A DNA stretch of 49,961 nt from a bacterium (GTDB lineage Bacteria > Gemmatimonadota > Gemmatimonadetes > Gemmatimonadales > JACORV01), in contig JAJYLI010000002.1 of NCBI GenBank assembly GCA_021787855.1, forward strand, positions 1 through 49,961. Reading direction: 5' to 3'. Below are positions 11,358 through 33,959 of this stretch, piece by piece. The translations under genes were made by a program, and so were the position numbers. The notes below the pieces were generated by a model, which worked only from the letters and a program-made list of their open reading frames with translations, did no database searches and was not told the origin of the DNA. The stretch's first letter is position 1. The number at the start of each line of letters is the position of its first letter.

Positions 11358-11677
11358 ACGAGCAGCTCAAGCGGATGCTCTCCCCGGAGGACGACGGTCG
11401 CGCGTTCACCGACGCCGTGCTGCTCCGGGCGGCCGGGGCGCTGCACCGGCGGCGGGCGGCCGCGACGCGGCGGGCGGATCGCCCGGCGTGGACCTGGCTG
11501 GAGGCGTGGGCGCGGCCGTGGCTCATCGCCGCGATCGTGGGGCTGGCGCTGGCCGTCGCGCTGCCCGCGCTCGAGCGCGCGTGGAGCCAGCCCTCGGCCG
11601 AGCCGAGCCTGACGGCGGATCTGGTGGGCGCCGGCCCCGCCACGTCGTACGTGCTCGCCGAAACGCTGGGGAACTAG
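11354..11677 (+). CDS. putative membrane-anchored anti-sigma factor
   Basis: ATGA overlap with the ECF sigma gene. One predicted TM segment (PWLIAAIVGLALAVALPAL). The call rests on position and topology only. Confidence 0.55.
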   Translation: MNEQLKRMLSPEDDGRAFTDAVLLRAAGALHRRRAAATRRADRPAWTWLEAWARPWLIAAIVGLALAVALPALERAWSQPSAEPSLTADLVGAGPATSYVLAETLGN

Positions 11678-11686
11678 GGCGCGCCG

Positions 11687-12094
11687 ATGTTCAACCGGTC
11701 GAAGGTCTGGGCGATCACGCTGCTGGTGGCGGTGGCCCTGGCGGGCCTGGTGGCCGGGGCCGCGCTGGAGGGCTGGGCGGCCGGCCGGCACCGCCACCAC
11801 GACGCCCACGAGACGTACTCGGGCTACCTCGCCCGCAAGCTGGGGCTGAGCCCGGCGCAGCACGACTCGGTGGTGGCCATCCTGCGCCGCCACCGGCCGG
11901 AGATCCGGGCGCTGTTCCTGACCATTCGCCCGGCGCTCGACACGGCCCGCGCCAGGGTCGCCGACGAGATCCGCCTCATCCTGACTCCCGCGCAGCGGGA
12001 GACGTACCAGCGGCTGCTGGATCGCGACCGGGCGGAGCGCGCCCGGGCCGACAGCGTGGCGGCCGCGCAAGCGCACGAGAACCTGAAGCCATGA
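11687..12094 (+). CDS. periplasmic Spy/CpxP-like ('heavy-metal sensor' type) protein
   Basis: Signal/TM N-terminus, a His-rich patch HRHHDAHE, and repeated L(S/T)PAQ motifs (LGLSPAQHD, LTPAQRETYQRLL). Confidence 0.65.
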   Translation: MFNRSKVWAITLLVAVALAGLVAGAALEGWAAGRHRHHDAHETYSGYLARKLGLSPAQHDSVVAILRRHRPEIRALFLTIRPALDTARARVADEIRLILTPAQRETYQRLLDRDRAERARADSVAAAQAHENLKP

Positions 12095-18590: not shown

Positions 18591-19628
18591 TCAGGAGCCG
18601 GCGGTCTGTCCCGCGGCCGGAGCGGCGATGTAGCTCGCCGGCACCTCGCCGGTCAGCGCGTTCAGGTACGCCACGATCCGGTTCACGTCCTCGGGCGACA
18701 GCGTCTTGCCGAGCTGGTGCTTCGCCATCAGGGCGACGGCCTGTGGCAGCGTCGCCACCGAGCCGTTGTGGAAGTACGGCGCCGTGCGCGCGACGTTGCG
18801 CAGCATCGGGACCTTGAACACCAGCGTGTCGGACGCCTCGTGCGTGATGGCCGCGCGGCCGATGTCCGACTTGTCGGGCCACGGCTCCACCGCGCCGAGC
18901 TTCTGGTACATCCCGCCGCCCACCAGCATCCCGTTGTGGCAGGCCTGGCAGCCGGTCGCGACGAAGGTGTTGAAGCCTATCCGCTCCTCGGGGGTGAGCG
19001 CCGTGGTGTCACCGTCCAGGAACCGGTCCCACGCACCCGGGGTCACGAGCTTGCGCTCGAACGCGCCGATCGCCAGCCCCACGTTGTCGTACGTCATGGG
19101 GTCCCTCGCGTCGGGGAACGCCGCGCGGAACGCCGCACGGTAGGCCGGGACCGCCTTGAGCCGCGCGATCACGGCCGCGGCGCTGGGCATCCCCATCTCG
19201 ACCGGGTTCAGCACCGGACCCTTGGCCTGCTCCTCGACCGTGGCGGCGCGCCCGTCCCAGAATTGCGCGATCTGGCCCGCCGCGTTGTACACGGTGGGCG
19301 AGTTGCGCCCGCCGAGCTGCCCCTTGGTGCCCACGCTGAACCGGCGGCCGTCCACGCCGTACGCCGCGAGGTTGTGGCAGGTGTTGCACGATTCGTTGTT
19401 GTTGAGCGAGAGCCGGGTGTCGTAGTACAGCGTCCGGCCGAGATTCACCTTCGCGTCGGTCAGCGGATTGGCCGGCGACTCCAGCGCCGCCGCCAGGGGC
19501 GAAAAGGCCGCCAGCGACGCCTGATCCACCTTCGCGCTCGGCCCACGCTGGCACGCCGGCACGAGTACCGCCACGAGGGCGGCCGAACAGAGGACCGTGG
19601 AGCGGCGGAGCACGCGACGCGACGACAT
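18591..19628 (-). CDS. di-heme cytochrome c peroxidase (CCP/MauG family), lipoprotein
   Basis: Internal ATG at 19628 preceded by GGGAGG. Lipobox LVPAC. Heme motifs CNTCH and CQACH, plus GGRNSPTVYNA, FWDGRA and PYFHNGS. Confidence 0.92.
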   Translation of the reverse strand: MSSRRVLRRSTVLCSAALVAVLVPACQRGPSAKVDQASLAAFSPLAAALESPANPLTDAKVNLGRTLYYDTRLSLNNNESCNTCHNLAAYGVDGRRFSVGTKGQLGGRNSPTVYNAAGQIAQFWDGRAATVEEQAKGPVLNPVEMGMPSAAAVIARLKAVPAYRAAFRAAFPDARDPMTYDNVGLAIGAFERKLVTPGAWDRFLDGDTTALTPEERIGFNTFVATGCQACHNGMLVGGGMYQKLGAVEPWPDKSDIGRAAITHEASDTLVFKVPMLRNVARTAPYFHNGSVATLPQAVALMAKHQLGKTLSPEDVNRIVAYLNALTGEVPASYIAAPAAGQTAGS

Positions 19629-19768
19629 GGAGCCTCCCGAGTGGTTGCTCGACAATAGGCCCGGGCGGCGCGCCCCGCAACGTTGGAGAGACCCGGATTT
19701 CCGGCGCAGACACTCGGCTTTCGGCACCCCGCTCGCCATTCGCGGGCGGCCGGGTGCGGCGCGGCGGC

Positions 19769-20575
19769 TCAGCGCTCGAGCACGAACCGGAGCGCCTGGG
19801 CGAAGACCCGAAGCGGGGCGGGGCCGTGGCCCAGGCGCGGGATCACCTCGAAGCGGTGCGGCACGCCCCAGCGCTGGAGCTCGTCCGCGGCGGCCGTGGC
19901 CATGCGGCGGCGCGTGCCGATGTCGCGGCTGCCCATGGTGAGGAAGAAGCGCGTGCCGCGGCGATCGAGGTCGCCGGCGCCGTCGGGCGTCGGGCGGTAG
20001 CTCGCGCGGCTGGCCATGACGATGGCGCCGTGCAGCCGGTCCGGGTTGCGCAGGGTGATGGCCCATGCGAGGTCGCCGCCTAGGGAGAAGCCGGCCAGGA
20101 CCAGACGCGAGCGATCAATGCGATAGTGGTCGGCGGCGGCGGCGAGATCCGCGAGCACCCGGCGCTCGTAGCGCTCGATGGTGCCGGTCCACGCCGCCTC
20201 GGTGCGGTAATCCGACGCGCGGCCGCGGCCGCGGGCGAGGATCAGGAGGAAGCCGGGACCCGATCCTTCGCGCGGAAACAGGTAAGGCCACAGCGCCTCG
20301 AGCTGGCGCTGCGGCGGCTCGCGGTACAGCGCGCCGAGCCCGGCCTGGGCCAGATAGATCTGCAGGATGGCCTCGGCCGTGCTGCCCGTGGGCGGCAGCA
20401 GCTCGACCACGGGATACGCGCGGCGCGAATCGTAGTCGGGCGGGAGCACGACCACGCCGGCCGCTTCCGGCGCGGGCGCCAGGCGTTCCGGATGGGGCGC
20501 GCACGCCGTGGCCAGGAGGGCGGCCGCGGCCAGCGCCGGAACCGCGCTCCCTGCGCGCCGGCGGAGCGTCATCAC
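19769..20575 (-). CDS. alpha/beta-hydrolase esterase-like lipoprotein
   Basis: 268 aa. Lipobox LLATAC and nucleophile elbow GFSLGG. Confidence 0.7.
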   Translation of the reverse strand: MMTLRRRAGSAVPALAAAALLATACAPHPERLAPAPEAAGVVVLPPDYDSRRAYPVVELLPPTGSTAEAILQIYLAQAGLGALYREPPQRQLEALWPYLFPREGSGPGFLLILARGRGRASDYRTEAAWTGTIERYERRVLADLAAAADHYRIDRSRLVLAGFSLGGDLAWAITLRNPDRLHGAIVMASRASYRPTPDGAGDLDRRGTRFFLTMGSRDIGTRRRMATAAADELQRWGVPHRFEVIPRLGHGPAPLRVFAQALRFVLER

Positions 20576-20725
20576 GGGTCGGAGTCTAGCCGCCGCCGCG
20601 GCGCCGGGGAAGCGCTACGCCGCGGGATGCGCTACGCGGAAGGGGCCGGGCGTGGCGGCGTCAGGGCAGAGGGCCACCGGGAAGCGCGGCGATCGCCAGC
20701 ATCGCGGGAATCGCGCTCCGGGGGT

Positions 20726-21121
20726 TCACAGGCAGAGGAGGCGGACCGGGGGCCCGTTGCGCACCAGGTCGAGCGGCCCGACCGTCTCGCCGAGGTCGGG
20801 GACGGTGATGGTCAGCGTCAAGTGGTCGCCGGCGACCTCGCCCACGTAGTGCGCGGGGTGCGGCGCGGGCCCGCCCGCGGGCACGGGACCGGCCTCGATG
20901 AAGTACGTCCCGCCCGCGGCGAACCGGCCCTCGGAGGTCAGCGTCCAGGCCGAGTCAATCTTCCCGCCGGCGCACGGGAGCTGGAGCGCGCCGCCGGAGT
21001 CGGCGAGCACGAGGCTCGCCTGCGTGCCGCCCCAGCTCCCGACGACGACGGGTGCGGGAGCCGTGGCGGACGCGCAACCAGCGACCAGCGCGAGCAGGGG
21101 AAGCCGTGCGAGGCGCATCAT
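20726..21121 (-). CDS. hypothetical lipoprotein
   Basis: 131 aa. Signal plus lipobox LLALVAGC. High GC3. Confidence 0.6.
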   Translation of the reverse strand: MMRLARLPLLALVAGCASATAPAPVVVGSWGGTQASLVLADSGGALQLPCAGGKIDSAWTLTSEGRFAAGGTYFIEAGPVPAGGPAPHPAHYVGEVAGDHLTLTITVPDLGETVGPLDLVRNGPPVRLLCL

Positions 21122-21412
21122 GGAGGTCTACAGCCACAGACCCCGGCAGGTTCCGCCGGGTCACACCGCCGGAGACCGGCCCTCCGCGTCGAGCGAGCGA
21201 TCACGTGCCCTCCGGCACGGGACCGGGTTCGGGGACGACATCCCTCGGCCGCTGAGGTCGCGGCGCCGTTCATGACCGCGAAGACTGCGGCCGGCGGCGA
21301 TCGGCGCAGGCAACACAAACCAGACAAGGGTGGTCGGTATTCGCGCGCGCGGCGGGTGCCCGAGGCGCGGGATATGCGCTACGTTCGGGCGGGATCAGAA
21401 GGCGGGGCGGCC

Positions 21413-21727
21413 ATGCTGCATCTCGCGTTGTGGATCATCCTGGCGGTGTGGGTGGGCATCGCGCTGCTGGTGCTCGTCGCGATCGTGGCGACGATCGGCG
21501 TCGGCACCATCCGCATGCTGCTGGATCGGCGCGGCGTCACGGGCTCGGTGTGGTGTCCGCTGCTCCAGCGAACCATGGAAGTGCTGGGGCCTCCGGCGGC
21601 GTTCGTGGGTGAGCCGAGCGGGTTCGAGGACGTGCGGCGCTGCGAGCGGTTCGGCAAGGGGCGCATCCAGTGCCACAGGTGGTGCGTCCGGACCCAGGAA
21701 CTCGCCGGGGCGGCGCCGACCAACTAG
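21413..21727 (+). CDS. small membrane protein with Cys-rich C-terminal tail
   Basis: ATG 21413 (alternative ATG 21374). One long TM segment (LALWIILAVWVGIALLVLVAIVATIGVG). Tail carries C-x10-C-x3-C (CERFGKGRIQCHRWC). High GC3. Confidence 0.55.
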   Translation: MLHLALWIILAVWVGIALLVLVAIVATIGVGTIRMLLDRRGVTGSVWCPLLQRTMEVLGPPAAFVGEPSGFEDVRRCERFGKGRIQCHRWCVRTQELAGAAPTN

Positions 21728-21738
21728 GCGCCCAGCAC

Positions 21739-22182
21739 TCAGTAGAGCTGCCCGTCGGGCCCCCGCCACCGTCCGCGGCCGAGGCTCTCGAAGACCAGCA
21801 CCCCCACGACGTCCCGCTGGTCTCCCCGCATCACGTGCACCCGGGTGCAATCGTCGAGGGAGCTCCCGGCCGCCGGAAGGCCGGCCGCGTCGTACCGCGG
21901 CGGGCGATAGGCGTGGGCCGACAGCCCACCTCCGTAGCAGGCGTCCCCGAGGAACTGGATCTCGGCGTCGTAGCGCAGCGTGACGAGCGTGGCGCCGAGC
22001 AGGGTCGAGCGCTGGCGTCCCGTCGCGCGGAACCGCACCAGCCGCACGAGACCGTGGCCCTCCTGTCCCACTTCGCGGCCGAGCACGCGCTCGGCGTCTG
22101 CGGCATCCGGATGTGCGCGCGCGCAACCGCTCCCCGCCGCCACGGCGGCGGCGAGCAGCCAGGGAGACAGCCGCGGGCGCAT
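21739..22182 (-). CDS. hypothetical lipoprotein (last gene of the cytochrome c operon)
   Basis: The internal ATG at 22182 overlaps the upstream stop by 1 nt (TGATG). Lipobox AAGSGC. Confidence 0.6.
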   Translation of the reverse strand: MRPRLSPWLLAAAVAAGSGCARAHPDAADAERVLGREVGQEGHGLVRLVRFRATGRQRSTLLGATLVTLRYDAEIQFLGDACYGGGLSAHAYRPPRYDAAGLPAAGSSLDDCTRVHVMRGDQRDVVGVLVFESLGRGRWRGPDGQLY

Positions 22183-22856
22183 CAGCGCCGCACCACCGCG
22201 GAGACGGTCTGCAGGTAGCCGAGGATCTGCGACGCGTCGGCCCGGCTGATCTGCTGCATCTTCATGCGCTGCATGTTCTCCGTCATCCGCAGCACCACCA
22301 CCGGCCAGTCGGGGGGCGAGTGCATCCGGGGATCGGGCAGCACGTGGCAGCGCGAGCACGCGGTGGCGAACAGATCGCGGCCCACGCCGGGCGGCAGCGA
22401 GCCGGCGACCGGCAGCGCGTGGCCTTGCAGGTAGGCGAGGAGCTCGGCCCGTTCCGCCGTGCTCGGAACACGCAGCCCCAGGTCTCCGGCCATCATGTCA
22501 ATCCGTACCCACATGCGGCGGGTCACCGCCGGCCAGTCCATCGCTCCGTGCATCGCCGGCGACGGCAGGGCGTGGCACTGCGTACAGTACTGCTGCAGCA
22601 CCCTGGCTCCGGGCGCAGCCGGATCGGGCAGGCTCTCCGCCGCGATGCCGGGCGGCAGGGCGATGGTGGCCGCTTCGAGCAGCCGCTGCCGTCGCACCGC
22701 CAGCGGGGCGGAAGGGGAAGGGGAGGCGGGGGGTGCGGGCGGGGGGAGCGTAGCGGCCTCGGCCGTGCCGGGCGATGCCGGCGCCCGCCCGGTGGGGGTG
22801 GGTGTTCCGCAGCCAACCAGCACGACGACCGCCGTCAGCAGCGCCCGCACGCTCAT
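22182..22856 (-). CDS. di-heme c-type cytochrome lipoprotein (two atypical repeated heme modules)
   Basis: Lipobox VLVGC followed by a Pro/Ala-rich linker. Two CXXCH motifs (CTQCH, CSRCH), each followed by LP-x-P-x-MH-x3-DWP-x-V-x2-RM. Confidence 0.8.
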   Translation of the reverse strand: MSVRALLTAVVVLVGCGTPTPTGRAPASPGTAEAATLPPPAPPASPSPSAPLAVRRQRLLEAATIALPPGIAAESLPDPAAPGARVLQQYCTQCHALPSPAMHGAMDWPAVTRRMWVRIDMMAGDLGLRVPSTAERAELLAYLQGHALPVAGSLPPGVGRDLFATACSRCHVLPDPRMHSPPDWPVVVLRMTENMQRMKMQQISRADASQILGYLQTVSAVVRR

Positions 22857-22875
22857 GGCATCCTCCCCGCGACGA

Positions 22876-23640
22876 CTATCGGCCGGCGGTCAGGACCGGC
22901 AAGTAGGCGATCACATCCCAGAGCTGCTGGTCCCCGAACAGCCGGCCCCATTCAGGCATGAGACCGCGGTGCCGGGTGGGTCCACGCGTCTTGAGCAAGG
23001 CGAACACCTGCTCGGCCTGCCGCGGCAGGTCGAGCGCCCGCAGGTCCGCAGGCGGGGGCGACTGCTCCGCCGCGAGCGCGCCGTCTCCGGCGCCCCGCAG
23101 GCCGTGGCAGTGCACGCAGTATGTGCCGTAAATGAGACGGCCCGCCGCCGGGTTGCCGCGCGCGCCGGGCTCGGCGAAGGTCGCGATGTAGGCGATGGCG
23201 GCGCGAAGCTCGGGCTCGCGCAGGCCGTGCCAGGCGGCCCCCTCCACCGCGGTCGCACCGGCGGCCGGCGGCGCGCGCCGCACCCGCCGCACCAGGGCCC
23301 CGACCGAACTGCCCCCCACCGCCCGCGCCAGGTCCGGCAGGTCCTCGCGGAAGCCCCGGGCGAGCGGGCCGTCGCCGTGGCCGTACCACCCGTGGCAGCT
23401 CCAGCAGTAGGTGTCGTATACCTCCCGCCCGCGCCGCTCGCCGGCCGTGAGCTGCGGGGCCGCCACCGGCGGCAGGGAGTCCTCGGCCGCAAGCGGCGCC
23501 TCAGGGCGAACGGCCGCCGCGGCGTTCTCCCCGCCGCCCGCGGCCGAAGGCGGTGCCTCGGCGGCACACGCCCCCAACCCCAGCGCGGCGCTCCACAGCG
23601 CGAGGCGCCAGGCCGCCGCGAGTCCGCGCGAGCCGCTCAC
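22876..23640 (-). CDS. di-heme class I c-type cytochrome
   Basis: GTG at 23640 lies 17 nt after the upstream stop (the ORF start at 23721 would overlap). Signal peptide present. Heme motifs CWSCHGWYGHGDG and CVHCHGLRGAGDG. Confidence 0.8.
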   Translation of the reverse strand: MSGSRGLAAAWRLALWSAALGLGACAAEAPPSAAGGGENAAAAVRPEAPLAAEDSLPPVAAPQLTAGERRGREVYDTYCWSCHGWYGHGDGPLARGFREDLPDLARAVGGSSVGALVRRVRRAPPAAGATAVEGAAWHGLREPELRAAIAYIATFAEPGARGNPAAGRLIYGTYCVHCHGLRGAGDGALAAEQSPPPADLRALDLPRQAEQVFALLKTRGPTRHRGLMPEWGRLFGDQQLWDVIAYLPVLTAGR

Positions 23641-23656
23641 GCCGGCGCGCCCCCGC

Positions 23657-23992
23657 TCAGCGATGCAGCGTCTTGATGTAGGCCGCGACGGAGTCCACCT
23701 GCGCCGGCGAGAGCTGTCCACTGAAGGCGGGCATGCTCCGGCGGCCGTGGCGGATCACCTGGCGCACGGCGGAGTCGGTCGTCGCCAGCCGCTTGGCCGG
23801 GTTGGTGAAATCAATCGGCCGCGGGTTCAAGGCCATGGCCATCGGGCCGTTGCCGCGCCCCTCCGCCCCGTGGCACATGGCGCACCGGACGTGGAAGACC
23901 GCCGCCCCGGTGACCTCCTGCGCTCTGACGACGCCCGGGGCTCCGACCGCGAGCACCGCCACGGCGGCGCAGCACCACAGTCCTGTCCGCAT
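23657..23992 (-). CDS. mono-heme class I c-type cytochrome
   Basis: ATG at 23992 preceded by GGGAGGAACAGG. Signal peptide ...VVRAQE. Motifs CAMCHGAEGRGNG and distal MPAF. Confidence 0.85.
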   Translation of the reverse strand: MRTGLWCCAAVAVLAVGAPGVVRAQEVTGAAVFHVRCAMCHGAEGRGNGPMAMALNPRPIDFTNPAKRLATTDSAVRQVIRHGRRSMPAFSGQLSPAQVDSVAAYIKTLHR

Positions 23993-24216: not shown

Positions 24217-25611
24217 CTACCCCGCGTCCAGGCCGTACTTCTCGAGCCGGTAGCGCAGCGTGTCCCGGGTCAGGCGCAGCAGCCTCGCCGCGCGCGTCTT
24301 GTTGCCGCGCGCCGCGTCGAGTGCCTGAGCGATGAGCGTCCGCTCGACCTGCTCCAGATCCACGCCCCCGGCGGGCAGCGCGAAGCCGGCACCGTCGCCA
24401 CACGGGGCCGCGGGGTCGGCCGCGCCGAGGAGCCGGACCTCGAGGGGCAGCTGCTCGACGGTGATTTCCCCGCCCTCCTCCAGCAGCAGCAGCCGCTCGA
24501 CCACGTTCCGCAGCTCGCGCGCATTGCCCGGCCAGCGGTACGCCTCCAGGCAGGCGAGCGTCTCGGCCGCCAGGCGCGGCGGCGCGCGGTGGAATTCACG
24601 GCTCAGCTCGTCGAGGAAGTGCAGGGCGAGGGGCGCGACGTCCTCGGGACGCTCCCGGAGCGGCGGCAGGACCTGCGGGAGCACGTTGATCCGGTAGTAC
24701 AGGTCGGGCCGGAAGGCGTTCTGGCGCGCGGCGAGCGCCAGGTCGCGGTTGGTCGCGGCGATGATCCGCACGTCCACCTCGAGATCCGCCAGCCCGCCGA
24801 CGCGCCGGAAGGTGCGCGTCTCCAGGAAGCTCAGCAGCTTGGCCTGGACGCCCAGGGGGATGTCGCCGATCTCGTCCAGCAGGACCGTCCCGCCGTCGGC
24901 CAGCTCCAGGAGACCGCGCTTCTTCTCGCGGGCGTCGGAGAAGGCGCCCCGTTCGTGGCCGAACAGCTCCGACTCGTAGAGGTTCTCGGGGATCGCCGTG
25001 CAGGTCACGCGCAGGAACGGCGCATCGCGCCGCGGGCTGCGGTCGTGGATGGTCCGGGCGATCACGTCCTTGCCGGTGCCGCTCTCCCCCTGCAGCAGCA
25101 CCGTCGCCGGATCGGCGCCGGCGACCTTCTCGACCCAGTCCAACACGGCGCGCATCGCCGCCGACCGCGCGACCACGGTCGCCGACGCCGAGTCCCAGCG
25201 ATGCATCTCGCGCAGGCCGTCCACCTGGTGGCGCAGCCGCCAGGCTTCCAGCGCCTTGTCCAGGATGACGAGCAGCTGCTCGAACGACAGTGGCTTCTGC
25301 AGGAACTGGTAGGCGCCCGCCTTGACCGCGGCGACGGCGGTCTCGATCTCGCCGTAGGCCGTCATGATGATGACCGGCATCTCGCGGTCGAATCGGTGCA
25401 GCTGCTCCAGCGCGTCGAGGCCGTTGGTGTCGGGAAGCCGGAGGTCGAGCAGCACCAGCGAGGGCGCCTCCGCGGCGGCCAGCCGCAGCGCTTCCGCGCG
25501 GGAGCCCGCGACGCACACCTCGAAGCCCGCCCCCCGGAGCTGCTCCCCCAGCCACAGGCGCAGCAGCTCCTCGTCGTCCACGACCAGGATCTTCGCCCGC
25601 CGCATCTTCAC
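24217..25611 (-). CDS. sigma54-dependent response regulator (NtrC family: REC, AAA+, Fis-type HTH)
   Basis: 464 aa. Motifs ILVVDDE...LVLLDLRLPD, Walker A GESGTGKD, GAFSDA (a GAFTGA variant) and LLDEIGD. C-terminal HTH GNKTRAARLLRLTRDTLRYRL. Confidence 0.93.
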   Translation of the reverse strand: MKMRRAKILVVDDEELLRLWLGEQLRGAGFEVCVAGSRAEALRLAAAEAPSLVLLDLRLPDTNGLDALEQLHRFDREMPVIIMTAYGEIETAVAAVKAGAYQFLQKPLSFEQLLVILDKALEAWRLRHQVDGLREMHRWDSASATVVARSAAMRAVLDWVEKVAGADPATVLLQGESGTGKDVIARTIHDRSPRRDAPFLRVTCTAIPENLYESELFGHERGAFSDAREKKRGLLELADGGTVLLDEIGDIPLGVQAKLLSFLETRTFRRVGGLADLEVDVRIIAATNRDLALAARQNAFRPDLYYRINVLPQVLPPLRERPEDVAPLALHFLDELSREFHRAPPRLAAETLACLEAYRWPGNARELRNVVERLLLLEEGGEITVEQLPLEVRLLGAADPAAPCGDGAGFALPAGGVDLEQVERTLIAQALDAARGNKTRAARLLRLTRDTLRYRLEKYGLDAG

Positions 25612-27470
25612 GCCTCACCTCCGTTGCCCCCGGGGGCCGCGGCCACCGGCAGGAACACCACGAACTCCGCCCCGGTCGCGCCCGGCCCGTCGGCCAGCGC
25701 CACGCGCCCGCCGTGCAGGTCCACGATCTGGCGCACGATGGCCAGCCCCAGGCCGGTCCCCGCGTGCTTCGTGGTGTAGAACGGCCGGAAAATCCGCTCG
25801 CGCTCCTCGGCCGCCACGCCCGGCCCCGTGTCGCGCACCGACAGCTCCACGCCGCCCTCCGCGCGCCGGGTCGCGACCACCAGCTCGCCGCCGTTCCGCA
25901 TCGCCTCGACGGCGTTGAGAACCAGGTTGACGACCACCTGGCCCATCTGGTCCGGATCGGCGAGCACCGGTGGCAGCGCGTCCGCCAGCGCGCGCCGCAC
26001 CCGCACCGCCGACCGTTCCGCCCGCGGAGCGGCGAGCGCGAGGGCGCGCTCCACGATGGCGTTGAGGTCGAGGCGCGACGGCCGCGCCGGCGACGGGCGG
26101 GCGTAGCTCAGCAGCCCCTGCACCGCCGCCTCCATCCGCCCGACCCGCTCCCGCAGCTCGTGCAGCAACCGGCGGCCCTCCGCGTCGGCGGCCCCGACGT
26201 GGCTGCCCAGCAGCTCGACGCCGCCGGCGATCCCCAGCAGCGGGGACTTCAGCTCGTGCGCCACCCCCGCCGCCAGCTCGCCGACCGTCGCCAGCTGCTC
26301 CGCCCGGCGCATGTGCTCCCGGTGCAGGTCCCGGAGGCGGGCGGCCGATTCCCGCAGCTGCGCCGCCATGGCGTTGAAGCGCCCGGCCAGGAGCCCCAGC
26401 TCGTCGTGCTGCGCGACCGCCACCGACGCCTCAAGATCGCCGCTCGCGATCCGCTCCGTCGCGCCGACCAGCGCGTAGACCGGCCGCACCAGACCGCGCG
26501 AGACGATCCAGGCCGCCGCGATCACCACCAGCACGAAGACCGCGCCCAGCAGCACCGACAGCCGCCGCAGCCCCCGCAGCCCCCCGACGGCCGCCTGCAC
26601 CGGGATCTCGGCGACAAACCGCAGCGGGTAGCCCGGCACGGCGTGCTCGCCGCCGATGACCTCCGTTCCGTCGCCGCTGCGGTAGCGCACGATCCCCGCC
26701 GCCAGCGCGCGGTACGACGGCAGCGCCTGGCCGTAGTCCACCGGCCCCCCGGGCGACGACACCAGGACCGGCAGGCCCGACGAATCCACGATGGACCCCT
26801 CCACGGCCCCCGCGAGCAGCGCCGGGATCTGGAGCGCGGGGCCGATGGCCGCCGTGGCCACCACGCCCACCACCACCACCGGCCGCGTCGCGTCCGGCGC
26901 GAACAGGTCGGCCGCGAAGAGCAGCCGCGGTGCCGGCGGCGCGCCGACACGCTCCACGGCGAACGCCTGCCCGCCGGCCGCGCGCGCCAGGACCTCGGCG
27001 TCCCGCCACCGCACCCCCGAGGCGAACCGCGGCGAGGCGGCGACGACGATCCGCGCGGGATCCACCAGTTCCAGGGCCGTGAACACCTGAAGCTGCCGGC
27101 GCAGCACTTCCAGCTCCTCGGCGGCGAGCGCGCTGGCCCCGCTCAGCGCCAGCGGCCGAATCGTCGAATCCCGGAGCGCGGACGCGCTCGCGATCAGCAG
27201 CCGGTCGTTCCGCGCCGCCGACGTGAGCCCCAACAGCAATCGCTCGATCTCGTCGCGCACGTGATGCGCCTGCACCGCCGCGAGCGCGTCCAGGTCGCGC
27301 TCCGCCAGCCGGTGGATGATCCGGCTGCTCGCCAGGTACCCGATGGTGTTGGAAGCGAACAGCGGAACGAGCGAGAGCAGCAGCAGCCAGGCCAGCATCC
27401 GCTGGCCCAGCGCGCTCAACAGCGGGTTCTCACGCCACAGCATCCGCCAGCCGGAACCGCCACGCCCCAT
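25608..27470 (-). CDS. sensor histidine kinase (2 TM, roughly 270-aa periplasmic domain, HAMP, HisKA, HATPase_c)
   Basis: H-box AAGVAHELKSPL, N-box VVNLVLNAVEAM, G-boxes RDTGPGV and GTGLGLAIV. The stop overlaps the regulator start. ATG 27470 has GGGAG upstream, 27443 is an alternative, and 27569 is the ORF-caller start. Confidence 0.88.
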   Translation of the reverse strand: MGRGGSGWRMLWRENPLLSALGQRMLAWLLLLSLVPLFASNTIGYLASSRIIHRLAERDLDALAAVQAHHVRDEIERLLLGLTSAARNDRLLIASASALRDSTIRPLALSGASALAAEELEVLRRQLQVFTALELVDPARIVVAASPRFASGVRWRDAEVLARAAGGQAFAVERVGAPPAPRLLFAADLFAPDATRPVVVVGVVATAAIGPALQIPALLAGAVEGSIVDSSGLPVLVSSPGGPVDYGQALPSYRALAAGIVRYRSGDGTEVIGGEHAVPGYPLRFVAEIPVQAAVGGLRGLRRLSVLLGAVFVLVVIAAAWIVSRGLVRPVYALVGATERIASGDLEASVAVAQHDELGLLAGRFNAMAAQLRESAARLRDLHREHMRRAEQLATVGELAAGVAHELKSPLLGIAGGVELLGSHVGAADAEGRRLLHELRERVGRMEAAVQGLLSYARPSPARPSRLDLNAIVERALALAAPRAERSAVRVRRALADALPPVLADPDQMGQVVVNLVLNAVEAMRNGGELVVATRRAEGGVELSVRDTGPGVAAEERERIFRPFYTTKHAGTGLGLAIVRQIVDLHGGRVALADGPGATGAEFVVFLPVAAAPGGNGGEA

Positions 27471-27553
27471 GCCACCGCTCCCTGTGCGGCCGGTGAATTC
27501 CCCCGCATCACATGGGCCATTAAAACAGTCGGGTTTGGATTCCCGCCCACACC

Positions 27554-27567
27554 GGGGGTTTTCCCCC
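27554..27567. promoter_or_regulatory. palindrome GGGGGTTTTCCCCC (candidate enhancer/UAS), with related half-sites at 27495-27506 and 27537-27548
   Basis: Lies about 85-90 bp upstream of the TGGCAC at 27645. Its core is the same as the 24195-24208 palindrome GGGGGATTTCCCCC. Confidence 0.45.
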
Positions 27568-27644
27568 ACCAGGATCCGGCATCACGTCCGGCCTCGGCTC
27601 GCCTAATCACCGACGCCGCAACGGGTTCGTGATGTGCAGAACGC

Positions 27645-27660
27645 TGGCACCCAACCTGCC
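27645..27660 (+). promoter_or_regulatory. sigma54 (-24/-12) promoter candidate for the pentaheme-MopB-FeS-NrfD-tetraheme operon
   Basis: TGGCACccaacCTGCC has a perfect -24 hexamer and canonical GG/GC spacing. It lies 140 nt upstream of GTG 27790. Confidence 0.7.
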
Positions 27661-27789: not shown

Positions 27790-28293
27790 GTGAGGGCGTG
27801 GTTGACGGGTGGCGCGGCGGGAATCGCGATCGGGATCGCCGTGGCGGTCACCGCGGCGCGGTGGGCGGGCGCGGTGACGCAGCCCGTCGCCTTCGACCAC
27901 CGGAAGCACACCCAGGATCTGAAGCTCGACTGCGCGCTGTGTCACCCGAACGTCGCGGTCGGGCAGCATCCCGGGCTGCCGTCGGTGGAGATCTGCGCGA
28001 TGTGCCACCAGACCAGGCTGGGGACGTCCAGCGCGTCGGCACAGGTGACCGGGTACGTCACGAGCGGGCGGCCGCTGGTCTTCCGCAAGCTGTTCGGCCT
28101 GCCGCCGTACGTGTTCTTCACGCACCGCCGGCACGTGGCGATCGCGAAGCTGCCGTGCGCCGACTGCCACGGCGACATCGCCCTGACCACCACGCCGCCG
28201 CGCCGCCCTCTGGTCACGATCACGATGAACTTCTGTCTCCACTGTCACCTCAAGATGCATCAGAGCACCGACTGCATCGCCTGCCACCGCTGA
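27790..28293 (+). CDS. membrane-anchored pentaheme cytochrome c (c3/c7-class; ActA/QrcA-like)
   Basis: GGAGGG lies 8 nt upstream of the GTG. N-terminal TM segment. Five CXXCH motifs (CALCH, CAMCH, CADCH, CLHCH, CIACH) plus distal His motifs (FDHRKH, FTHRRH). Confidence 0.9.
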   Translation: MRAWLTGGAAGIAIGIAVAVTAARWAGAVTQPVAFDHRKHTQDLKLDCALCHPNVAVGQHPGLPSVEICAMCHQTRLGTSSASAQVTGYVTSGRPLVFRKLFGLPPYVFFTHRRHVAIAKLPCADCHGDIALTTTPPRRPLVTITMNFCLHCHLKMHQSTDCIACHR

Positions 28294-28301
28294 GGCCGCG
28301 C

Positions 28302-30713
28302 GTGAGCTTCGATCGTCGCCAGTTCCTGTTCGCCCTCGGCGGCGGCGTCGTAGCCGGGGCCGGTCTGTCCGAGATCGCGGCCGGCCTGGCCGCGCCCACC
28401 GGCCTGCTCGGTCCCGTGCCCGTGCCGCATCCGGCCTGGGCCCCGGGGGTGGAGCAGCGCGTCGCTTCCGCGTGCCTCGTCTGCCCGTCGCGCTGCGGCA
28501 TCCGCGGCCGGATCGTGGACGGGCGCCTGGTCCGGATTGACGGCAACCCGCTGCACCCCCTGAGCCAGGGGGGCCTCTGCCCGCGGGGCGCCGCGGGGGT
28601 CCAGATGCAGTACTCCCCCGGCCGGCTGACGGCGCCGCTGCTGCGGGCGGGGCCGCGGGGCGCGGGCCGGTGGCGCCCGCTGTCGTGGGATGGCGCGGTG
28701 AGCCTGCTGGTGGAGCGGCTGGGGCGGCTGCGCGCGGCGGGCGGGCCGCAGGCGGCGGCGGTGCTCGCCGGCTACTGCGCCGGCTCGATGGAGGACCTGT
28801 GGCGGCAGTTCCTCCGGGCCTACGGCTCGGCGAACTACGCCGCGGACGCGTACGCGGACGGCGGCGACGCGGTCATGGCCGCCATGCACGGCGTCGCGCG
28901 GCGCCCGGCCTACGACCTCGACCGCGCCACGCTGGTCCTGTCGTTCGGCGCGCCGCTGTTCGAGGCGTGGTGGTCCCCGGTGCAGGCGGCGGTCGCGTAC
29001 GGACGCACCGAGCGCATCCGGGAGGGGGCACCGCGCCCGCGCTTCGTCCAGGTGGATACCCGGTTCTCCCGCACCGCGGCGCGGTCGTCCGAGTGGATCG
29101 GCGTGCGGCCGCGGACCCACGCGATCCTGGCGCTGGGCATCGCCTACGTGCTGATCCGCGAGGCGCTGGTGGACGCCGATTTCCTCGCGGCGCACGTGTC
29201 CGGCTACGAGGACTGGAGCGACGCCGCGGGCGGTCACGAGGGCTACCGCACGGCCGTGCTGCGCCGCTATCGCACCGAGGAAGTCTCCGCCGCCACCGGC
29301 GTCAGCGTGGAGCGGATCGTCGGGCTGGCGCGGGCCTTCGCGGCGGGCCCGCGGTCGCTGGCCATCTGCGGCCCCGATGTCACGCTGGCCCCCGACGGCC
29401 TGCTCGCGGGGCTGGCCGTGCACAGTCTCAATGTGCTGGTGGGGAGCGTCAGCCGCCCGGGCGGCGTGCTGGTGGGCGAGGATCCGCCGCTCGCGCCGAT
29501 CGCCGCGGTCACGCTGGACGACGTCGCGCGGCGCGGCCTGGCCCACGGGCCCCTGGCGGCGGGCGCGCCGTTCGGGGAGGGAGGGGGGGAAACCGGGGCC
29601 GAGCGAGGCGCCGCGCTCGCCGAGGCCATCGCCGCGCGGAGCCCGGGGAGCGTACAGGCGCTGCTGCTCTACTACGCCAACCCGCTCGCCTCCGCCACCC
29701 GCCCGGAGCGCTGGGCCGCCGCGCTCGCGCGCGTGCCGCTGGTGGTGAGCTTCTCGCCGTTCCACGACGAGACCACGCGCCAGGCGGACCTGATCATCCC
29801 GGACCTCCTGCCGTACGAGCGCTGGCAGGACGCGCCGGCGCCGGCCTCGTACCCCTACCCGGCGTGGGCCGTCGTGCGCCCGCTGGTGGCGCCGCCCACC
29901 GGCGCGCTCGGCACCGCGGACGTGCTGCTCGCGGTGGCCAACCGCCTGGGCGGCACCGTGGCCGCGAGCCTGCCTCATCCCGACATGCACGCGCTGCTCA
30001 AGGCCCGCGCCCGCGGCCTGTTCGCGGCGCGGCGCGGGATGCCGTTCGGCGACGCCTTCGCCACCGAGTACCAGCGCCAGATGGAGGAGCGCGGCTGGTG
30101 GCTGGGCGGCGGCGCGCCGGCCGGGGGCGGGGGCGGCTTCGACGCCTTCTGGACCCGCGTGGTCGAAAGCGGCGGCTGGGCGGACCCGTTCTACGACTAC
30201 ACGGACGGCGGCCGGATGCGCCGCACGCCGAGCGGCAGGATCGAGCTGATGCCCGCCGACGTGCGGCGCCGCCTCCAGCCGGACGCCGGCCCGTACGACT
30301 TCATCGCGCGCGCCGAGCCGCCCGCGCCGGCCGGATACCCGCTGCGCCTTCAGCCGTACCGCGTCTCCACGCTCGCGTCGGGCACCATCGGGCTCGAGCC
30401 GTGGCTCGCCGAGCGGCCGGCGCTGTTCCCCGACGTGTACTGGGTACCGTGGGTGGAGGTGAACCCCGCCACGGCCCGCTCCCTCGGCCTCGAGGACGGC
30501 GCGCCGGCCTGGGTGACTTCGGCCCACGGCCGCTACCGGGCCCGGGTCAAGCACTTCCCCGGCGCCGCCCGCGACGTGGTGAACGCGCCGTACGGCCTGC
30601 GGCACCCGGACGGCGAGCTGGCCAATCCGCTCCAGCTCCTCGACGGGGCGGCCGATCCGCTCACGGGGCTGTCCTCGTGGGCCACCACGTTCGTCCACCT
30701 CGAGCGGGCCTGA
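28302..30713 (+). CDS. Tat-exported molybdopterin-oxidoreductase-family (MopB) large subunit
   Basis: GTG at 28302. Tat motif DRRQFLF. FS0 motif C-x2-C-x3-C-x27-C (CLVCPSRCG...GGLCPRG). About 800 aa. The upstream part of ORF 27798..30713 overlaps the pentaheme gene out of frame. Confidence 0.88.
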   Translation: MSFDRRQFLFALGGGVVAGAGLSEIAAGLAAPTGLLGPVPVPHPAWAPGVEQRVASACLVCPSRCGIRGRIVDGRLVRIDGNPLHPLSQGGLCPRGAAGVQMQYSPGRLTAPLLRAGPRGAGRWRPLSWDGAVSLLVERLGRLRAAGGPQAAAVLAGYCAGSMEDLWRQFLRAYGSANYAADAYADGGDAVMAAMHGVARRPAYDLDRATLVLSFGAPLFEAWWSPVQAAVAYGRTERIREGAPRPRFVQVDTRFSRTAARSSEWIGVRPRTHAILALGIAYVLIREALVDADFLAAHVSGYEDWSDAAGGHEGYRTAVLRRYRTEEVSAATGVSVERIVGLARAFAAGPRSLAICGPDVTLAPDGLLAGLAVHSLNVLVGSVSRPGGVLVGEDPPLAPIAAVTLDDVARRGLAHGPLAAGAPFGEGGGETGAERGAALAEAIAARSPGSVQALLLYYANPLASATRPERWAAALARVPLVVSFSPFHDETTRQADLIIPDLLPYERWQDAPAPASYPYPAWAVVRPLVAPPTGALGTADVLLAVANRLGGTVAASLPHPDMHALLKARARGLFAARRGMPFGDAFATEYQRQMEERGWWLGGGAPAGGGGGFDAFWTRVVESGGWADPFYDYTDGGRMRRTPSGRIELMPADVRRRLQPDAGPYDFIARAEPPAPAGYPLRLQPYRVSTLASGTIGLEPWLAERPALFPDVYWVPWVEVNPATARSLGLEDGAPAWVTSAHGRYRARVKHFPGAARDVVNAPYGLRHPDGELANPLQLLDGAADPLTGLSSWATTFVHLERA

Positions 30714-30734
30714 GCCCGGGGAGGAAAGCCGCCG

Positions 30735-31418
30735 ATGCCACGCTGGGGGATGGTGATTGACCTCGACCGCTGCACCGGCTGCGCCGCGTGCGAGGTCGCC
30801 TGCAAGAGCGAGAACAACATCGCCACGGTGCGGCCCGATCAGGCCGACATGGGGCGCGCCATGAGCTGGATGAAGGTGGAGACGAAGATCGAGGGCGACT
30901 TCCCCGACACCCGCCTCAGCTTCGCGCCCCGGCCGTGCATGCAGTGCGACAACCCCCCGTGCGTGAAGGTCTGCCCCGTGTCGGCGACCTACCTGAGCCC
31001 GGAGGGCATCGTCGGCCAGATCTACCCGCGCTGCATCGGCTGCCGGTACTGCGCCAACGCCTGCCCCTACACCGCCAAGTACTTCAACTGGTTCGCCCCC
31101 GCGTGGCCCGACAGCGAGCGCGCGCACCTGGACCCCGATGTCTCCGTCCGGCCCAGGGGTGTCATGGAGAAGTGCACGTTCTGCGACCACCGGCTCCAGC
31201 AGGCGAAGGAGAACGCGCGCGCCGCGGGCCGGCCCCTGCGCGAATCGGACTTCCAGCCGGCCTGCGCGGACGCGTGCCCCACGCGCGCCATCGTGTTCGG
31301 GGACCTGGACAACCCGGCGCACCGGGTGAGCACGCTCAAGAACGACCCGCGCGCGACGCGCCTCATGGAATCGCTGGGTACCGAGCCCAAGGTCTACTAC
31401 CTCACCCAGAAGGCCTGA
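30735..31418 (+). CDS. 4Fe-4S ferredoxin-type subunit (NrfC/PsrB/QrcC/ActB2-like)
   Basis: GGAGG upstream. Motifs MVIDLDRCTGCAACEVACKSEN, CMQCDNPPCVKVCP, CIGCRYCANACP, CTFCDHR and CADACP. Confidence 0.92.
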   Translation: MPRWGMVIDLDRCTGCAACEVACKSENNIATVRPDQADMGRAMSWMKVETKIEGDFPDTRLSFAPRPCMQCDNPPCVKVCPVSATYLSPEGIVGQIYPRCIGCRYCANACPYTAKYFNWFAPAWPDSERAHLDPDVSVRPRGVMEKCTFCDHRLQQAKENARAAGRPLRESDFQPACADACPTRAIVFGDLDNPAHRVSTLKNDPRATRLMESLGTEPKVYYLTQKA

Positions 31419-31419
31419 C

Positions 31420-32775
31420 GTGGACGACGCCGAAACCAAGCTCCGCGCGCTCCCCGAGGACGCCCGCACCCTGCTGCGGCCGCTGATCCACACGACCTGG
31501 CGGTTCTATCTCGCCGCCAGCCTGCTGGGCGCCGTGACCCTGTGGGGCATCGGCGCCTACGTCCTGCAGTTCCGCCACGGCCTGGGCGAGACCGGCCTCA
31601 ACCGGCCGGAGTACTGGGGCATCTACATCATTGATTTCGTCTTCTTCATCGGCATCAGCCACGCCGGGACGCTGATCAGCGCCATCCTCAGGATCAGCAA
31701 GGCGGAGTGGCGCCGCGCGATCACCCGCTCCGCCGAGTTCATCACCGTGCTGGTGATCGGCTTCGGGGCCATCCAGCCCATCGTGGACCTCGGGCGCCCC
31801 GACCGGCTGCTGAACATCTTCGCCCACGCGCACCTGCGCTCGCCGCTGCTGTGGGACGTCATGAGCATCTGCTTCTACCTGACCGCCAGCACGATCTACC
31901 TCTACCTGCCGATGCTGCCCGACCTGGCCATCATCCGGGACGCCGAGATCAAGGCGCCGCGGTTCTACCGCTTCCTGGCGGCCGGCTACCGCGACACGCC
32001 GGAGCAGCGGCGGCGGCTGGAGAAGGTGATCGGCGTCCTGGCCATCGTGGTGATCCCCATCGCCGTCTCGGTGCACACGGTGATCGGGTGGATCTTCGCG
32101 ATGACCCTGCGACCGATGTGGCACTCGACCATCTTCGGCCCGTACTTCGTGGTCGGCGCCATCTACTCCGGCATCGCGGCGCTGCTGGTGGCCATGGTCA
32201 TCCTGCGCCGCGTCTATCACCTCGAGCGCTACTTCAAGCCGGTGCACTTCGACTACATGGGCCGGCTGCTGCTGCTGTTCAGCCTGCTGTGGCTGTACTT
32301 CACGTTCGCCGAGTACCTCACGGCCTTCTACGGCAGCGAGCCCGCCGAGATGCGCACGTTCTGGGCGCGCATCTCGGGGCCGTTCGCCGTGCCGTTCTGG
32401 CTGATGGCCTTCTGCTGCTTCGTCCTGCCCTTCGCCCTGATGTGCCGGAAGGCGATGCGCGCGCCCACCGGCACCCTGATCGCGGGGATCGCGGTGGTGA
32501 TCGGCATGTGGCTGGAGCGGTTCAACATCGTGGTGCCGACCTCGGTGAACCCGCGGTTCGACCTCGAGCCGGTGGCCCACTACTTCCCCTCGGGGGTGGA
32601 GCTGTCCATCCTGGCCGCCACGTTCAGCGGGTTCATCCTGCTGTACATGGTCGCCACGAAGTTCTTCCCGATCATCTCCATCTGGGAGATCCGCGAGGGG
32701 CGGGAGGTGTCGGTGCGCGAGGTGGCCGAGCGCGTGGCCGACTACCTGCCGACCGAGTCCGCGGAGGCGGCCTGA
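31420..32775 (+). CDS. NrfD/PsrC-family quinone-interacting membrane subunit (long ActC/QrcD-like form)
   Basis: 451 aa and polytopic. The motif WGIYIIDFVFFIGISHAGTLISAILRISKAEWRR is typical of the NrfD family. Confidence 0.9.
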   Translation: MDDAETKLRALPEDARTLLRPLIHTTWRFYLAASLLGAVTLWGIGAYVLQFRHGLGETGLNRPEYWGIYIIDFVFFIGISHAGTLISAILRISKAEWRRAITRSAEFITVLVIGFGAIQPIVDLGRPDRLLNIFAHAHLRSPLLWDVMSICFYLTASTIYLYLPMLPDLAIIRDAEIKAPRFYRFLAAGYRDTPEQRRRLEKVIGVLAIVVIPIAVSVHTVIGWIFAMTLRPMWHSTIFGPYFVVGAIYSGIAALLVAMVILRRVYHLERYFKPVHFDYMGRLLLLFSLLWLYFTFAEYLTAFYGSEPAEMRTFWARISGPFAVPFWLMAFCCFVLPFALMCRKAMRAPTGTLIAGIAVVIGMWLERFNIVVPTSVNPRFDLEPVAHYFPSGVELSILAATFSGFILLYMVATKFFPIISIWEIREGREVSVREVAERVADYLPTESAEAA

Positions 32776-33959
32776 TGCCCGGCCGCGCGGGGCTCCTCGC
32801 GCTGCTGTGCGCCGCGGCCCTGGCGCCCGTCCCGGCGCGGGGCCAGGTCGCCGGCGCGAGCGGCGACCCGGCCGCCGGACGCGGCATCTTCGTCGAGCGC
32901 GGCTGCGTCCGCTGCCACGCCATCTGGGGCAACGGCGGCACCCTCGGGCCCGACCTCGCGACCGCCGGCTCCGGCGCGAGCATGCAGCAGCTCGCCGGGC
33001 TGCTGTGGAATCACACGCCGCGCATGATGGTCGCGATGCGCCAGCGCGGCTACGCGTGGCCGGCGCTCTCCGAGCCGGAGCTGGCCGACGTCATCAGCTA
33101 CATCTACTACGTGAAGCTGTTCGGCGAGCCGGGCGACCCGGACGCGGGCCGGCAGTGGTTCCGCGACAAGCGCTGCGTCGAGTGCCACCAGGTGGGCGAC
33201 GCCGGCGGGCGCGTCGGCGCGCCGCTGGACGGTTACGCGCGGTACGTGGCGCCGATCATGCTGGCCCAGGGGATGTGGGACCACGGGCCGGCGATGCAGG
33301 CCGCGCAACAGGCCCGGGGGGTCCCCATCCCGGCGTTCGAGGGCCGGGAGATGGCCGACATCCAGGCCTACATCCGCCGCGCGTCCGCGCAAAGCCCGCG
33401 CCAGGCGGTGCTGCTGGAGCCGCCGCAGCCGGAGCGCGGCCGGCGCCTGTTCGCCGCCAAGGGGTGCCCGCGGTGCCACGGCCCCGAGGGGCGCGGCACC
33501 GCCGCGGGCCCCGACCTCCGGGCCGCCACCCTGAACCTGAGCGTCTCCCAGATCGCCGGCGTGCTGTGGAACCACTCGTTCCAGATGGTGGCGCGCATGC
33601 GCCAGCACGGCGTCGGATTCCCCCAGTTCGCGGGAAACGACATGGCCGATCTCATCGCGTACCTCTACTTCCTGCGGTTCAACGACCCGGACGGCGACCG
33701 CGCCAACGGCGCGCGGATCTTCCGGGACAAGGGGTGCGCCGGATGCCACCGTCCGGCGCACGGCCCGCCCGTCGGCCCGGACCTGGCGCGCTCCGCGGCC
33801 GTCACGACGCCGCTGGGGCTCGTGGCCGCGATGTGGAACCACGCCCCGGCCATGTTCTCGGCGATGCAGGGCCACGCCGTCGCGTGGCCGCGGTTCGAGG
33901 GGAACGAGATGCGCGACCTGGCCTTCTACCTGCGGAGCCTCGCCCGCCCGGCGCGCTAG
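32775..33959 (+). CDS. periplasmic tetraheme c-type cytochrome built from four tandem modules of about 90-97 aa
   Basis: The ATG overlaps the NrfD stop (TGATG). Signal peptide present. CXXCH at residues 44, 134, 231 and 321 (CVRCH, CVECH, CPRCH, CAGCH), each followed by GPDL...(L/M)W(N/D)H...M...EM(A/R)D. Confidence 0.88.
   Translation: MPGRAGLLALLCAAALAPVPARGQVAGASGDPAAGRGIFVERGCVRCHAIWGNGGTLGPDLATAGSGASMQQLAGLLWNHTPRMMVAMRQRGYAWPALSEPELADVISYIYYVKLFGEPGDPDAGRQWFRDKRCVECHQVGDAGGRVGAPLDGYARYVAPIMLAQGMWDHGPAMQAAQQARGVPIPAFEGREMADIQAYIRRASAQSPRQAVLLEPPQPERGRRLFAAKGCPRCHGPEGRGTAAGPDLRAATLNLSVSQIAGVLWNHSFQMVARMRQHGVGFPQFAGNDMADLIAYLYFLRFNDPDGDRANGARIFRDKGCAGCHRPAHGPPVGPDLARSAAVTTPLGLVAAMWNHAPAMFSAMQGHAVAWPRFEGNEMRDLAFYLRSLARPAR

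Follow-up and report, generated by a model that had tools for sequence, protein, structure and literature searches.

We analysed, in the genome of a Gemmatimonadota bacterium (GenBank assembly GCA_021787855.1), an operon for a putative membrane-bound respiratory complex that includes a MopB-like subunit. The window, that is, the whole stretch of DNA under study, covers 49,961 nucleotides of contig JAJYLI010000002.1. Its G+C content is ~74%, and the close homologues of its proteins bear names from Gemmatimonadales or Gemmatimonadota. By using third-position G+C and inspection of open reading frames, we delimited five plus-strand genes that form one operon, the core of which is the three genes singled out by an earlier, sequence-only reading. 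The first gene (27790–28293) encodes a 167-aa pentahaem cytochrome c with five CxxCH motifs (Pfam Cytochrome_C7), similar to ActA of alternative complex III (ACIII) and to QrcA of the QrcABCD complex. Then come the MopB-like subunit (28302–30713, 803 aa), a four-cluster iron–sulfur (FeS) subunit of the ActB2/QrcC kind (30735–31418, 227 aa), whose 16 Cys fall in four ferredoxin-type groups, and an ActC-like membrane subunit of the NrfD type (31420–32775, 451 aa, Pfam NrfD 1.2e-34). The last gene (32775–33959) encodes a secreted four-domain class-I cytochrome c of 394 aa, with four CxxCH motifs and Pfam Cytochrom_C in four stretches. Its start ATG overlaps the NrfD stop codon (TGATG), and a convergent ABC-transporter gene comes next.

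The MopB-like subunit starts with a twin-arginine translocation (Tat) motif, VSFDRRQFLF, and has six cysteines in total, at positions 58, 61, 65, 93, 159, and 356. The first four form an exact C-x2-C-x3-C-x27-C, that is, the FS0 motif. Thus, both the Tat signal (DRRQFLF) and the complete N-terminal cysteine motif announced by the sequence-only reading are present. Pfam recognized the Molybdop_Fe4S4, Molybdopterin, and Molydop_binding domains. The same reading, relying on an alignment made by eye, had seen no Cys or Ser that could serve as molybdenum (Mo) ligand in the segment GSANYAADAYADGGDAVMAAMHGV, which corresponds to residues 175–198, and it was essentially right. Indeed, in phmmer alignments Gly187 was paired with the Mo-ligand Cys of PsrA (2vpw), and the corresponding Cys of ArrA (6cz7) fell opposite a gap; a 40-sequence family profile again paired Gly187 with the PsrA Cys, but matched the ArrA Cys to Asp186. 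Neither the phmmer nor the profile alignments to PsrA and ArrA revealed a Cys, a Ser, or a selenocysteine (Sec) at or beside the Mo-ligand position, and the conserved Cys or Ser ligand of an ordinary reductase was not found. Ser176 lies within a G-S-P-N motif common to PsrA and ArrA and is therefore not the ligand. Asp186 is invariant in 40 orthologues, in which Asp182, Tyr184, and Gly187 vary little or not at all.

Among NCBIfam curated models, the best match of the MopB-like subunit was QrcB, with 282 bits for a cut-off of 440. Models of catalytic enzymes stayed far below their cut-offs (PhsA 206/694, ArrA 137/1600, and TtrA 85/1750 bits). We searched the family profile against 1.84 billion representatives and obtained more than 150 matches, with scores of 407–1308 bits; counts of relatives given here rest on the best 150 representatives, 148 of which were aligned. 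All four FS0 cysteines were kept in 128 of the 148, and 7 of the remaining 20 were N-terminally truncated. The ligand loop was hypervariable in length and sequence. Judging from these alignments, lack of the ligand with retention of FS0 is the common state of this protein radiation.

QrcB and ActB1 have been described as cofactor-less (PMC13059093, PMC6303296, PMC5928083), and the sequence-only reading had taken both to have lost the site. To represent Desulfovibrio QrcB, we used as a class those representatives that pass the NCBI QrcB equivalog cut-off. Ten representatives with a P-S-x-x-D loop were scanned, of which eight passed and two scored just under; an eleventh, P0190, passed as well, giving nine in all. 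One of these clusters bears NCBI's QrcB name, and others come from "Deltaproteobacteria" metagenome-assembled genomes. FS0 cysteines were complete in seven of the nine, being absent from P0249 and partly missing in P0255. The QrcB-passing representatives have an Asp in the same alignment column as Asp186. Likewise, the fused ActB encoded elsewhere in the host genome keeps a Tat motif and a full CX2CX3CX27C, a motif that all four solved ActBs lack at the aligned positions. Loss of the site thus characterises the proteins of the model organisms rather than the families as such, since most of the QrcB-passing proteins and the host's own ActB keep FS0. The "cofactor-less" picture of QrcB and ActB1 rests on a few model proteins; most sequence relatives keep the FS0 site. 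Retention of FS0 without a Mo ligand has in fact already been published for related clusters (PMC4643136).

We built a FastTree phylogeny of 144 rows drawn from the best 150 representatives and rooted it on the ActB1 domain of the host genome; it includes no labelled catalytic outgroup, and its amino-acid composition is heterogeneous. The window MopB grouped with P0126, P0127, P0128, and P0130 in a five-row clade with support of 99–100; the cluster of P0130 includes an Acidobacteriota-named protein. QrcB-passing representatives formed a separate clade (support 99), with the window protein outside. We also considered the possibility that the protein was an ActB1 in disguise. It was rejected, as the protein shared 35.5% identity with the host's own ActB1 domain and 36.9% with a protein of the QrcB class. 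No fused protein of ActB length occurred among the 150 best representatives, and clustering within ActB1 was not found, although a tree rooted on a single ActB1 row cannot test ActB1 membership. As a side observation, three representatives, P0202, P0240, and P0246, have a Cys in the ligand loop followed by x4-K, and CPKG after FS0; P0240 and P0246 also have the P-G-T-D motif. Given these features, the three look catalytic. Because they are nested in a mostly ligand-less radiation, the ligand may have been lost more than once, or the root may be wrong.

The FeS subunit begins right at its first cluster motif and has no signal peptide of its own. Its best curated model was QrcC, with 314 bits for a cut-off of 400 (NCBIfam), and its best solved relative was the B2 domain of ActB in 6f0k (2.4e-62). 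The CRYC tyrosine, located between two Cys at the quinone site, is retained. The pentahaem cytochrome has one N-terminal hydrophobic helix, a membrane anchor, and its best solved relatives were the ActA chains 8k9e_A, 6btm_A, 6lod_A, and 6f0k_A (1.3e-19 to 6.7e-14), with 8k9e_A as top match at 1.3e-19. In the four-domain cytochrome, which is of the class-I, CcoP/c555-like type, CxxCH motifs occur at residues 44, 134, 231, and 321.

The NrfD subunit had been described from the sequence as a long form of 451 aa, with about 10 transmembrane helices and of the ActC/QrcD type, and this held. Indeed, a Kyte–Doolittle scan yielded ten hydrophobic segments, at about 31–49, 68–86, 100–125, 143–172, and 204–222 for the first five, and 244–262, 283–301, 322–340, 354–372, and 395–413 for the last five. 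Residues 18–426 aligned end to end with four solved 10-helix ActC chains (E = 8e-64 to 1.5e-56), whereas the match to ActF was much weaker (3.5e-14). The QrcD model gave 37 bits for a cut-off of 570 (NCBIfam).

A canonical actABCDEF cluster is complete on contig C8 of the same genome, and the fused 990-aa ActB of this genome (L007:5492-8509, minus strand) matches Rhodothermus marinus ActB at 5e-138. Thus, the window operon encodes a second, distinct complex. We compared its subunits with those of the host's own ACIII and with those of a QrcB-class locus, L009. The MopB-like subunit was 36.9% identical to the L009 protein and 35.5% to that of ACIII. The FeS subunit was closer to L009 (57.7% versus 49.5%), whereas the NrfD subunit was closer to ACIII (36.7% versus 25.4%).

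Solved ACIII structures were available from R. marinus (6F0K), Flavobacterium johnsoniae (6BTM), Roseiflexus castenholzii (6LOD), and Chloroflexus aurantiacus (8K9E). Like these complexes, the cassette combines an N-terminally anchored pentahaem cytochrome, a 10-helix NrfD of the ActC type, a Tat-exported MopB-like module with a four-cluster FeS module, and a c-type cytochrome through which electrons likely leave; for three of its four core subunits, the best solved relatives are ACIII chains. In contrast with ACIII, ActB is split here over two genes and a four-domain cytochrome c stands in place of the monohaem ActE. The FS0 cysteines also set the protein apart from the solved ActBs. The B1 domain of solved ACIII has no visible prosthetic group (PMC5928083), whereas the window MopB lacks the Mo-ligand residue but has the four-Cys FS0 motif intact.

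With QrcABCD, the cassette shares separate genes in the order multihaem cytochrome c, MopB-like, FeS, and NrfD, an order also found in L009. QrcB and QrcC were the top curated models for its MopB and FeS subunits, the ligand-equivalent column holds an Asp as in QrcB-class proteins, and the NrfD position matching His139 of ActC holds an Asp as in a QrcD-type protein. Yet all scores were under the cut-offs (282/440 for QrcB, 314/400 for QrcC, and 37/570 for QrcD), the window MopB lies in a separate, well-supported clade, and its NrfD partner is merely 25% identical to the QrcD-type protein. In addition, QrcABCD has no counterpart of the four-domain class-I cytochrome c, and it belongs to sulfate-reducing Desulfobacterota, whereas the host is a Gemmatimonadota bacterium and no sulfate reducer.

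Published clusters provide further parallels. A split actB1 carrying CX2CX3CX27C and falling in an "ACIII–Qrc clade" has been reported from iron-oxidising Beta- and Zetaproteobacteria (PMC4643136), and the actAB1B2CDE of Nitrospirales is an ACIII-like cluster without ActF (PMC12342949). By their published descriptions, these clusters resemble the window operon in having separate B1 and B2, the B1 motif (PMC4643136), and no ActF (PMC12342949). The ACIII-like cluster of MBNT15 encodes a four-haem ActE-like protein (PMC9386147), and thus, again by published description, resembles ours in having a four-haem cytochrome in ActE's place. Unlike the window operon, the published split-actB clusters retain ActD and usually ActE. 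Finally, the Tat signal, the FS0 motif, the four-domain fold, and the four-cluster partner subunit are shared with PsrABC, PhsABC, and ArrAB, and ArrA and PsrA were the best structural matches of the window MopB. What distinguishes it from Psr, Phs, and Arr is the absence of a Cys Mo ligand, curated scores far under the cut-offs, an NrfD of 10 rather than 8 helices, and the presence of a pentahaem subunit. Collectively, these sequence comparisons indicate that the cassette is a third, experimentally uncharacterised lineage of the ACIII/Qrc kind, one that is real and conserved.

On balance, we think with moderate confidence that the operon encodes a membrane quinol:cytochrome c oxidoreductase of the ACIII/Qrc type, with a non-catalytic MopB scaffold. 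The MopB-like subunit is most likely non-catalytic. That it lacks a Mo/W-pterin we infer from its relatives, since the characterised Qrc was reported to be without one (PMC6303296, PMC13059093). It may nevertheless still hold the FS0 [4Fe-4S] cluster. In such a complex, the 10-helix NrfD would bind menaquinol on its periplasmic side, beneath the CRYC tyrosine that the FeS subunit contributes; the equivalent tyrosine of Qrc, Tyr113, is essential (PMC13059093). Electrons would pass from the quinol to whichever of the four clusters of the FeS subunit lies closest, through the chain of this subunit to the membrane-anchored pentahaem cytochrome, then to the four-domain class-I cytochrome c, and from there to periplasmic or terminal acceptors. 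The MopB-like subunit would have two roles, carrying the FeS subunit, which has no signal, through the Tat pathway and capping the structure. As a matter of fact, the only Tat signal of the cassette sits on MopB and the FeS subunit has none, so that co-export of the latter is a sufficient reason for keeping MopB.

We favour electron flow from quinol to cytochrome c, judging from the class-I partner, the class-I cytochromes encoded nearby, and an adjacent cytochrome c peroxidase. Class-I cytochromes usually have a high potential. In ACIII, the direction from menaquinol to cytochrome c is downhill (PMC5928083). Any proton translocation by the complex is inferred as well.

Two sets of observations weigh against this interpretation. 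The first one concerns coupling. ActD, ActE, and ActF are absent from the window operon, and the charged triad of the ACIII quinol site, numbered His139/Asp169/Asp253 after R. marinus ActC (PMC5928083), is kept at one position in three. Indeed, Asp169, the LLWD aspartate, is retained as Asp146 in the window NrfD, whereas His139 is replaced by Asp123 and Asp253 by Ile225. The ACIII coupling mechanism is therefore not simply transferable, and the proton-pumping cross-talk proposed for ACIII (PMC5928083) cannot apply as written, since ActD and ActF are both missing. The three states of the window NrfD are conserved in the related loci L008, L010, L011, and L012. In the host's own ActC, the His139 position is a His and the other two are Asp, and the QrcD-type protein of L009 has, as in the window, an Asp at the His139 position. 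The quinone site of the window NrfD is a hybrid, a clade-specific mix of Qrc-like and ActC-like states.

The same architecture, with the same non-catalytic MopB, could operate in the Qrc direction, that is, from periplasmic cytochromes c to menaquinone, with electrons supplied by periplasmic oxidation. QrcABCD conserves energy by proton uptake from the cytoplasm, and energy may be conserved in the same way here if this were the case. We consider this direction unlikely. It would fit with the top rank of QrcB and QrcC among curated models for the MopB and FeS subunits, with the FeS subunit being more similar to that of the QrcB-class locus (57.7%) than to the host's own ActB2 (49.5%), and with the Asp at the His139 equivalent, as in the QrcD-type protein of L009. 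Besides, this genome already encodes a canonical actABCDEF for the oxidation of quinol, so that a second complex could differ in its job. However, the membrane subunit itself is ActC-like, with 36.7% identity to the host's ActC and E = 8e-64 to a solved ActC, against 25% to the QrcD-type protein and 37 bits out of 570 for the QrcD model. In addition, the partner cytochrome is of class I and not a low-potential tetrahaem c3, so that reduction of menaquinone would be uphill, and the annotated parts of the window showed neither a hydrogenase nor a formate dehydrogenase gene.

The second set of observations concerns the cofactor. The ligand loop of the window MopB is filled by an invariant acidic motif, D-x-Y-x-D-G, and Arg95, which follows the fourth FS0 Cys, shows no variation among Gemmatimonadota orthologues, like the residue in CPRG of PsrA. 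The AlphaFold2 model (mean predicted local distance difference test score, pLDDT, 79.3; predicted template modelling score, pTM, 0.83) shows a complete four-domain MopB fold, whose best structural match was ArrA (Z 35.4 over 701 residues), with PsrA at Z 33.1 over 665 residues. The match to a solved ActB (6lod_B) was weaker, with Z 27.4 over 583 residues. Judging from the model, the window MopB has undergone less erosion than the ActB1 domains of known structure. The sequence-only reading had called the module intermediate between a catalytic and a non-catalytic complex; this stands as far as the fold is concerned, which is nearer to ArrA and PsrA than to ActB, but not as regards FS0, whose retention is not unusual (128 of 148 relatives). 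Finally, MoeA and MobA-like genes are present in the genome, so that bis-molybdopterin guanine dinucleotide could be made, which permits a cofactor and no more.

From these features, one could propose that MopB is a true Mo/W-bis-pterin enzyme with Asp186 as ligand, and the operon a periplasmic oxidoreductase wired to quinone and c-type cytochromes. We judge this quite unlikely. NarG-type enzymes do use an Asp as metal ligand, and in catalytic enzymes it is the Lys or Arg following the fourth FS0 Cys that connects this cluster with the pterin. The invariance of the FS0 cysteines and of Arg95 would thus be accounted for, as would the family profile, which puts the invariant Asp186 exactly on the ArrA ligand Cys, the complete fold closest to ArrA, the retention of the D-P-R motif in a D-T-R form, the MoeA and MobA-like genes, and the nesting of the Cys-bearing P0202, P0240, and P0246 in the same radiation. 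On the other side, this Asp is shared with QrcB-class proteins, and the characterised member of that class is without Mo/W-pterin (PMC6303296). In the sister representatives P0128 and P0130, a Tyr or a Glu occupies the Arg/Lys position after the fourth Cys, within the window protein's own clade the P-G-T-D motif has His or Tyr in place of its Asp, and all curated catalytic models remain far from their cut-offs (PhsA 206/694 and ArrA 137/1600). Identity to the orthologue of L008 was 61% for MopB, 75% for FeS, and 76% for NrfD, and MopB thus appears to evolve faster than its two partners, a further point against catalysis. Lastly, no TorD/NarJ-type chaperone gene was found in the cassette, be it in the window, L008, L011, or L012, and the pentahaem subunit is ActA-like, both being typical of non-catalytic complexes.

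Two other discriminators were tried and rejected. The D-P-R, P-G-T-D, N-P, and E-T..AD..LP motifs are partly kept in QrcB-class proteins and in ActB too. Genes for Mo-cofactor biosynthesis are to be expected anyway, since contig C98 carries an FdhA-like gene of the Sec type. A formate-dehydrogenase-like MopB gene on that contig (L004, minus strand) contains an in-frame TGA, immediately followed by ...HAPSV...; this codon probably specifies selenocysteine.

That MopB binds a Mo/W-bis-pterin through Asp186 in a Psr/Arr-like fold, making the cassette a new kind of periplasmic molybdoenzyme, is in our view very unlikely. If it were true, the enzyme would be connected both with the quinone pool and with a pentahaem/tetrahaem cytochrome chain, and cofactors might also be held by many of the Qrc/ACIII-like proteins termed "cofactor-less" in which FS0 and this Asp are retained.

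Coming back to the quinol:cytochrome c oxidoreductase that we favour, we evaluated how widespread its cassette is. The order cytochrome, MopB, FeS, and NrfD recurs in L010 and in the QrcB-class locus L009. Three other loci combine a C7-type cytochrome, MopB, a 227-aa FeS subunit, and an NrfD of ~450 aa. Of these, L008 is a chromosome from Gemmatimonadota and L012 a contig from a metagenome, while L011 is the contig that bears P0301, a representative whose cluster comprises a protein named from Acidobacteriota. In these three loci, one or two cytochromes c of ~400 aa follow the cassette; both downstream cytochromes of L008, where alone the motifs were counted, have four CxxCH. In L010, which belongs to a more distant relative, the NrfD (10859–12604) is 581 aa long and has a C-terminal CBS domain according to precomputed Pfam hits.

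Among 200 sampled Gemmatimonadota species, orthologues with at least 59% identity were found in 11, and relatives at 37–39% identity in 3 further genomes. Within this sample, the cassette was absent from a complete genome of the same genus (G068). This patchy distribution points to an accessory respiratory module rather than the phylum's general complex III, and suggests gain and loss or lateral transfer. A genomic survey of Gemmatimonadota had detected bc1 and ACIII in few genomes and had suggested the possible existence of unrecognised complex III modules (PMC9426454). The idea that the cassette is the missing complex III of Gemmatimonadota was, however, rejected because of its distribution. 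In databases, its MopB is labelled only "molybdopterin-dependent oxidoreductase" or "anaerobic selenocysteine-containing dehydrogenase", and such labels can mislead metabolic reconstructions.

Upstream of the operon, two minus-strand genes encode a sensor histidine kinase (25608–27569; Pfam HAMP, HisKA, and HATPase_c) and a sigma-54-dependent response regulator (24217–25611) with a receiver, an AAA+ domain, and HTH_8 (Pfam Response_reg, Sigma54_activat at 3.7e-62, and HTH_8). The kinase gene runs into the start of the activator gene, which makes co-transcription of the pair probable. We read in the sequence a plus-strand match to the sigma-54 promoter consensus, TGGCAC-N5-CTGC, at 27645–27660, ~130 nt upstream of the first operon gene. 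The five-gene operon is probably under sigma-54 control. A histidine kinase and a sigma-54 activator also lie beside the cassette in L011 and L012, whereas in L008 the kinase is accompanied by a response regulator that consists of a receiver only.

Adjoining the regulator pair is a divergent operon (18591–23721, minus strand). It encodes a di-haem class-I cytochrome (22876–23721), a di-haem lipoprotein-like cytochrome (22182–22856), an alpha/beta hydrolase of the esterase kind (19769–20575), and a di-haem cytochrome c peroxidase (18591–19658), all on the minus strand, and also holds two small open reading frames. No MopB gene is among them, so that a second MopB operon on the far side of the regulators was not found. 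The proteins of this divergent operon are possible downstream partners of the complex.

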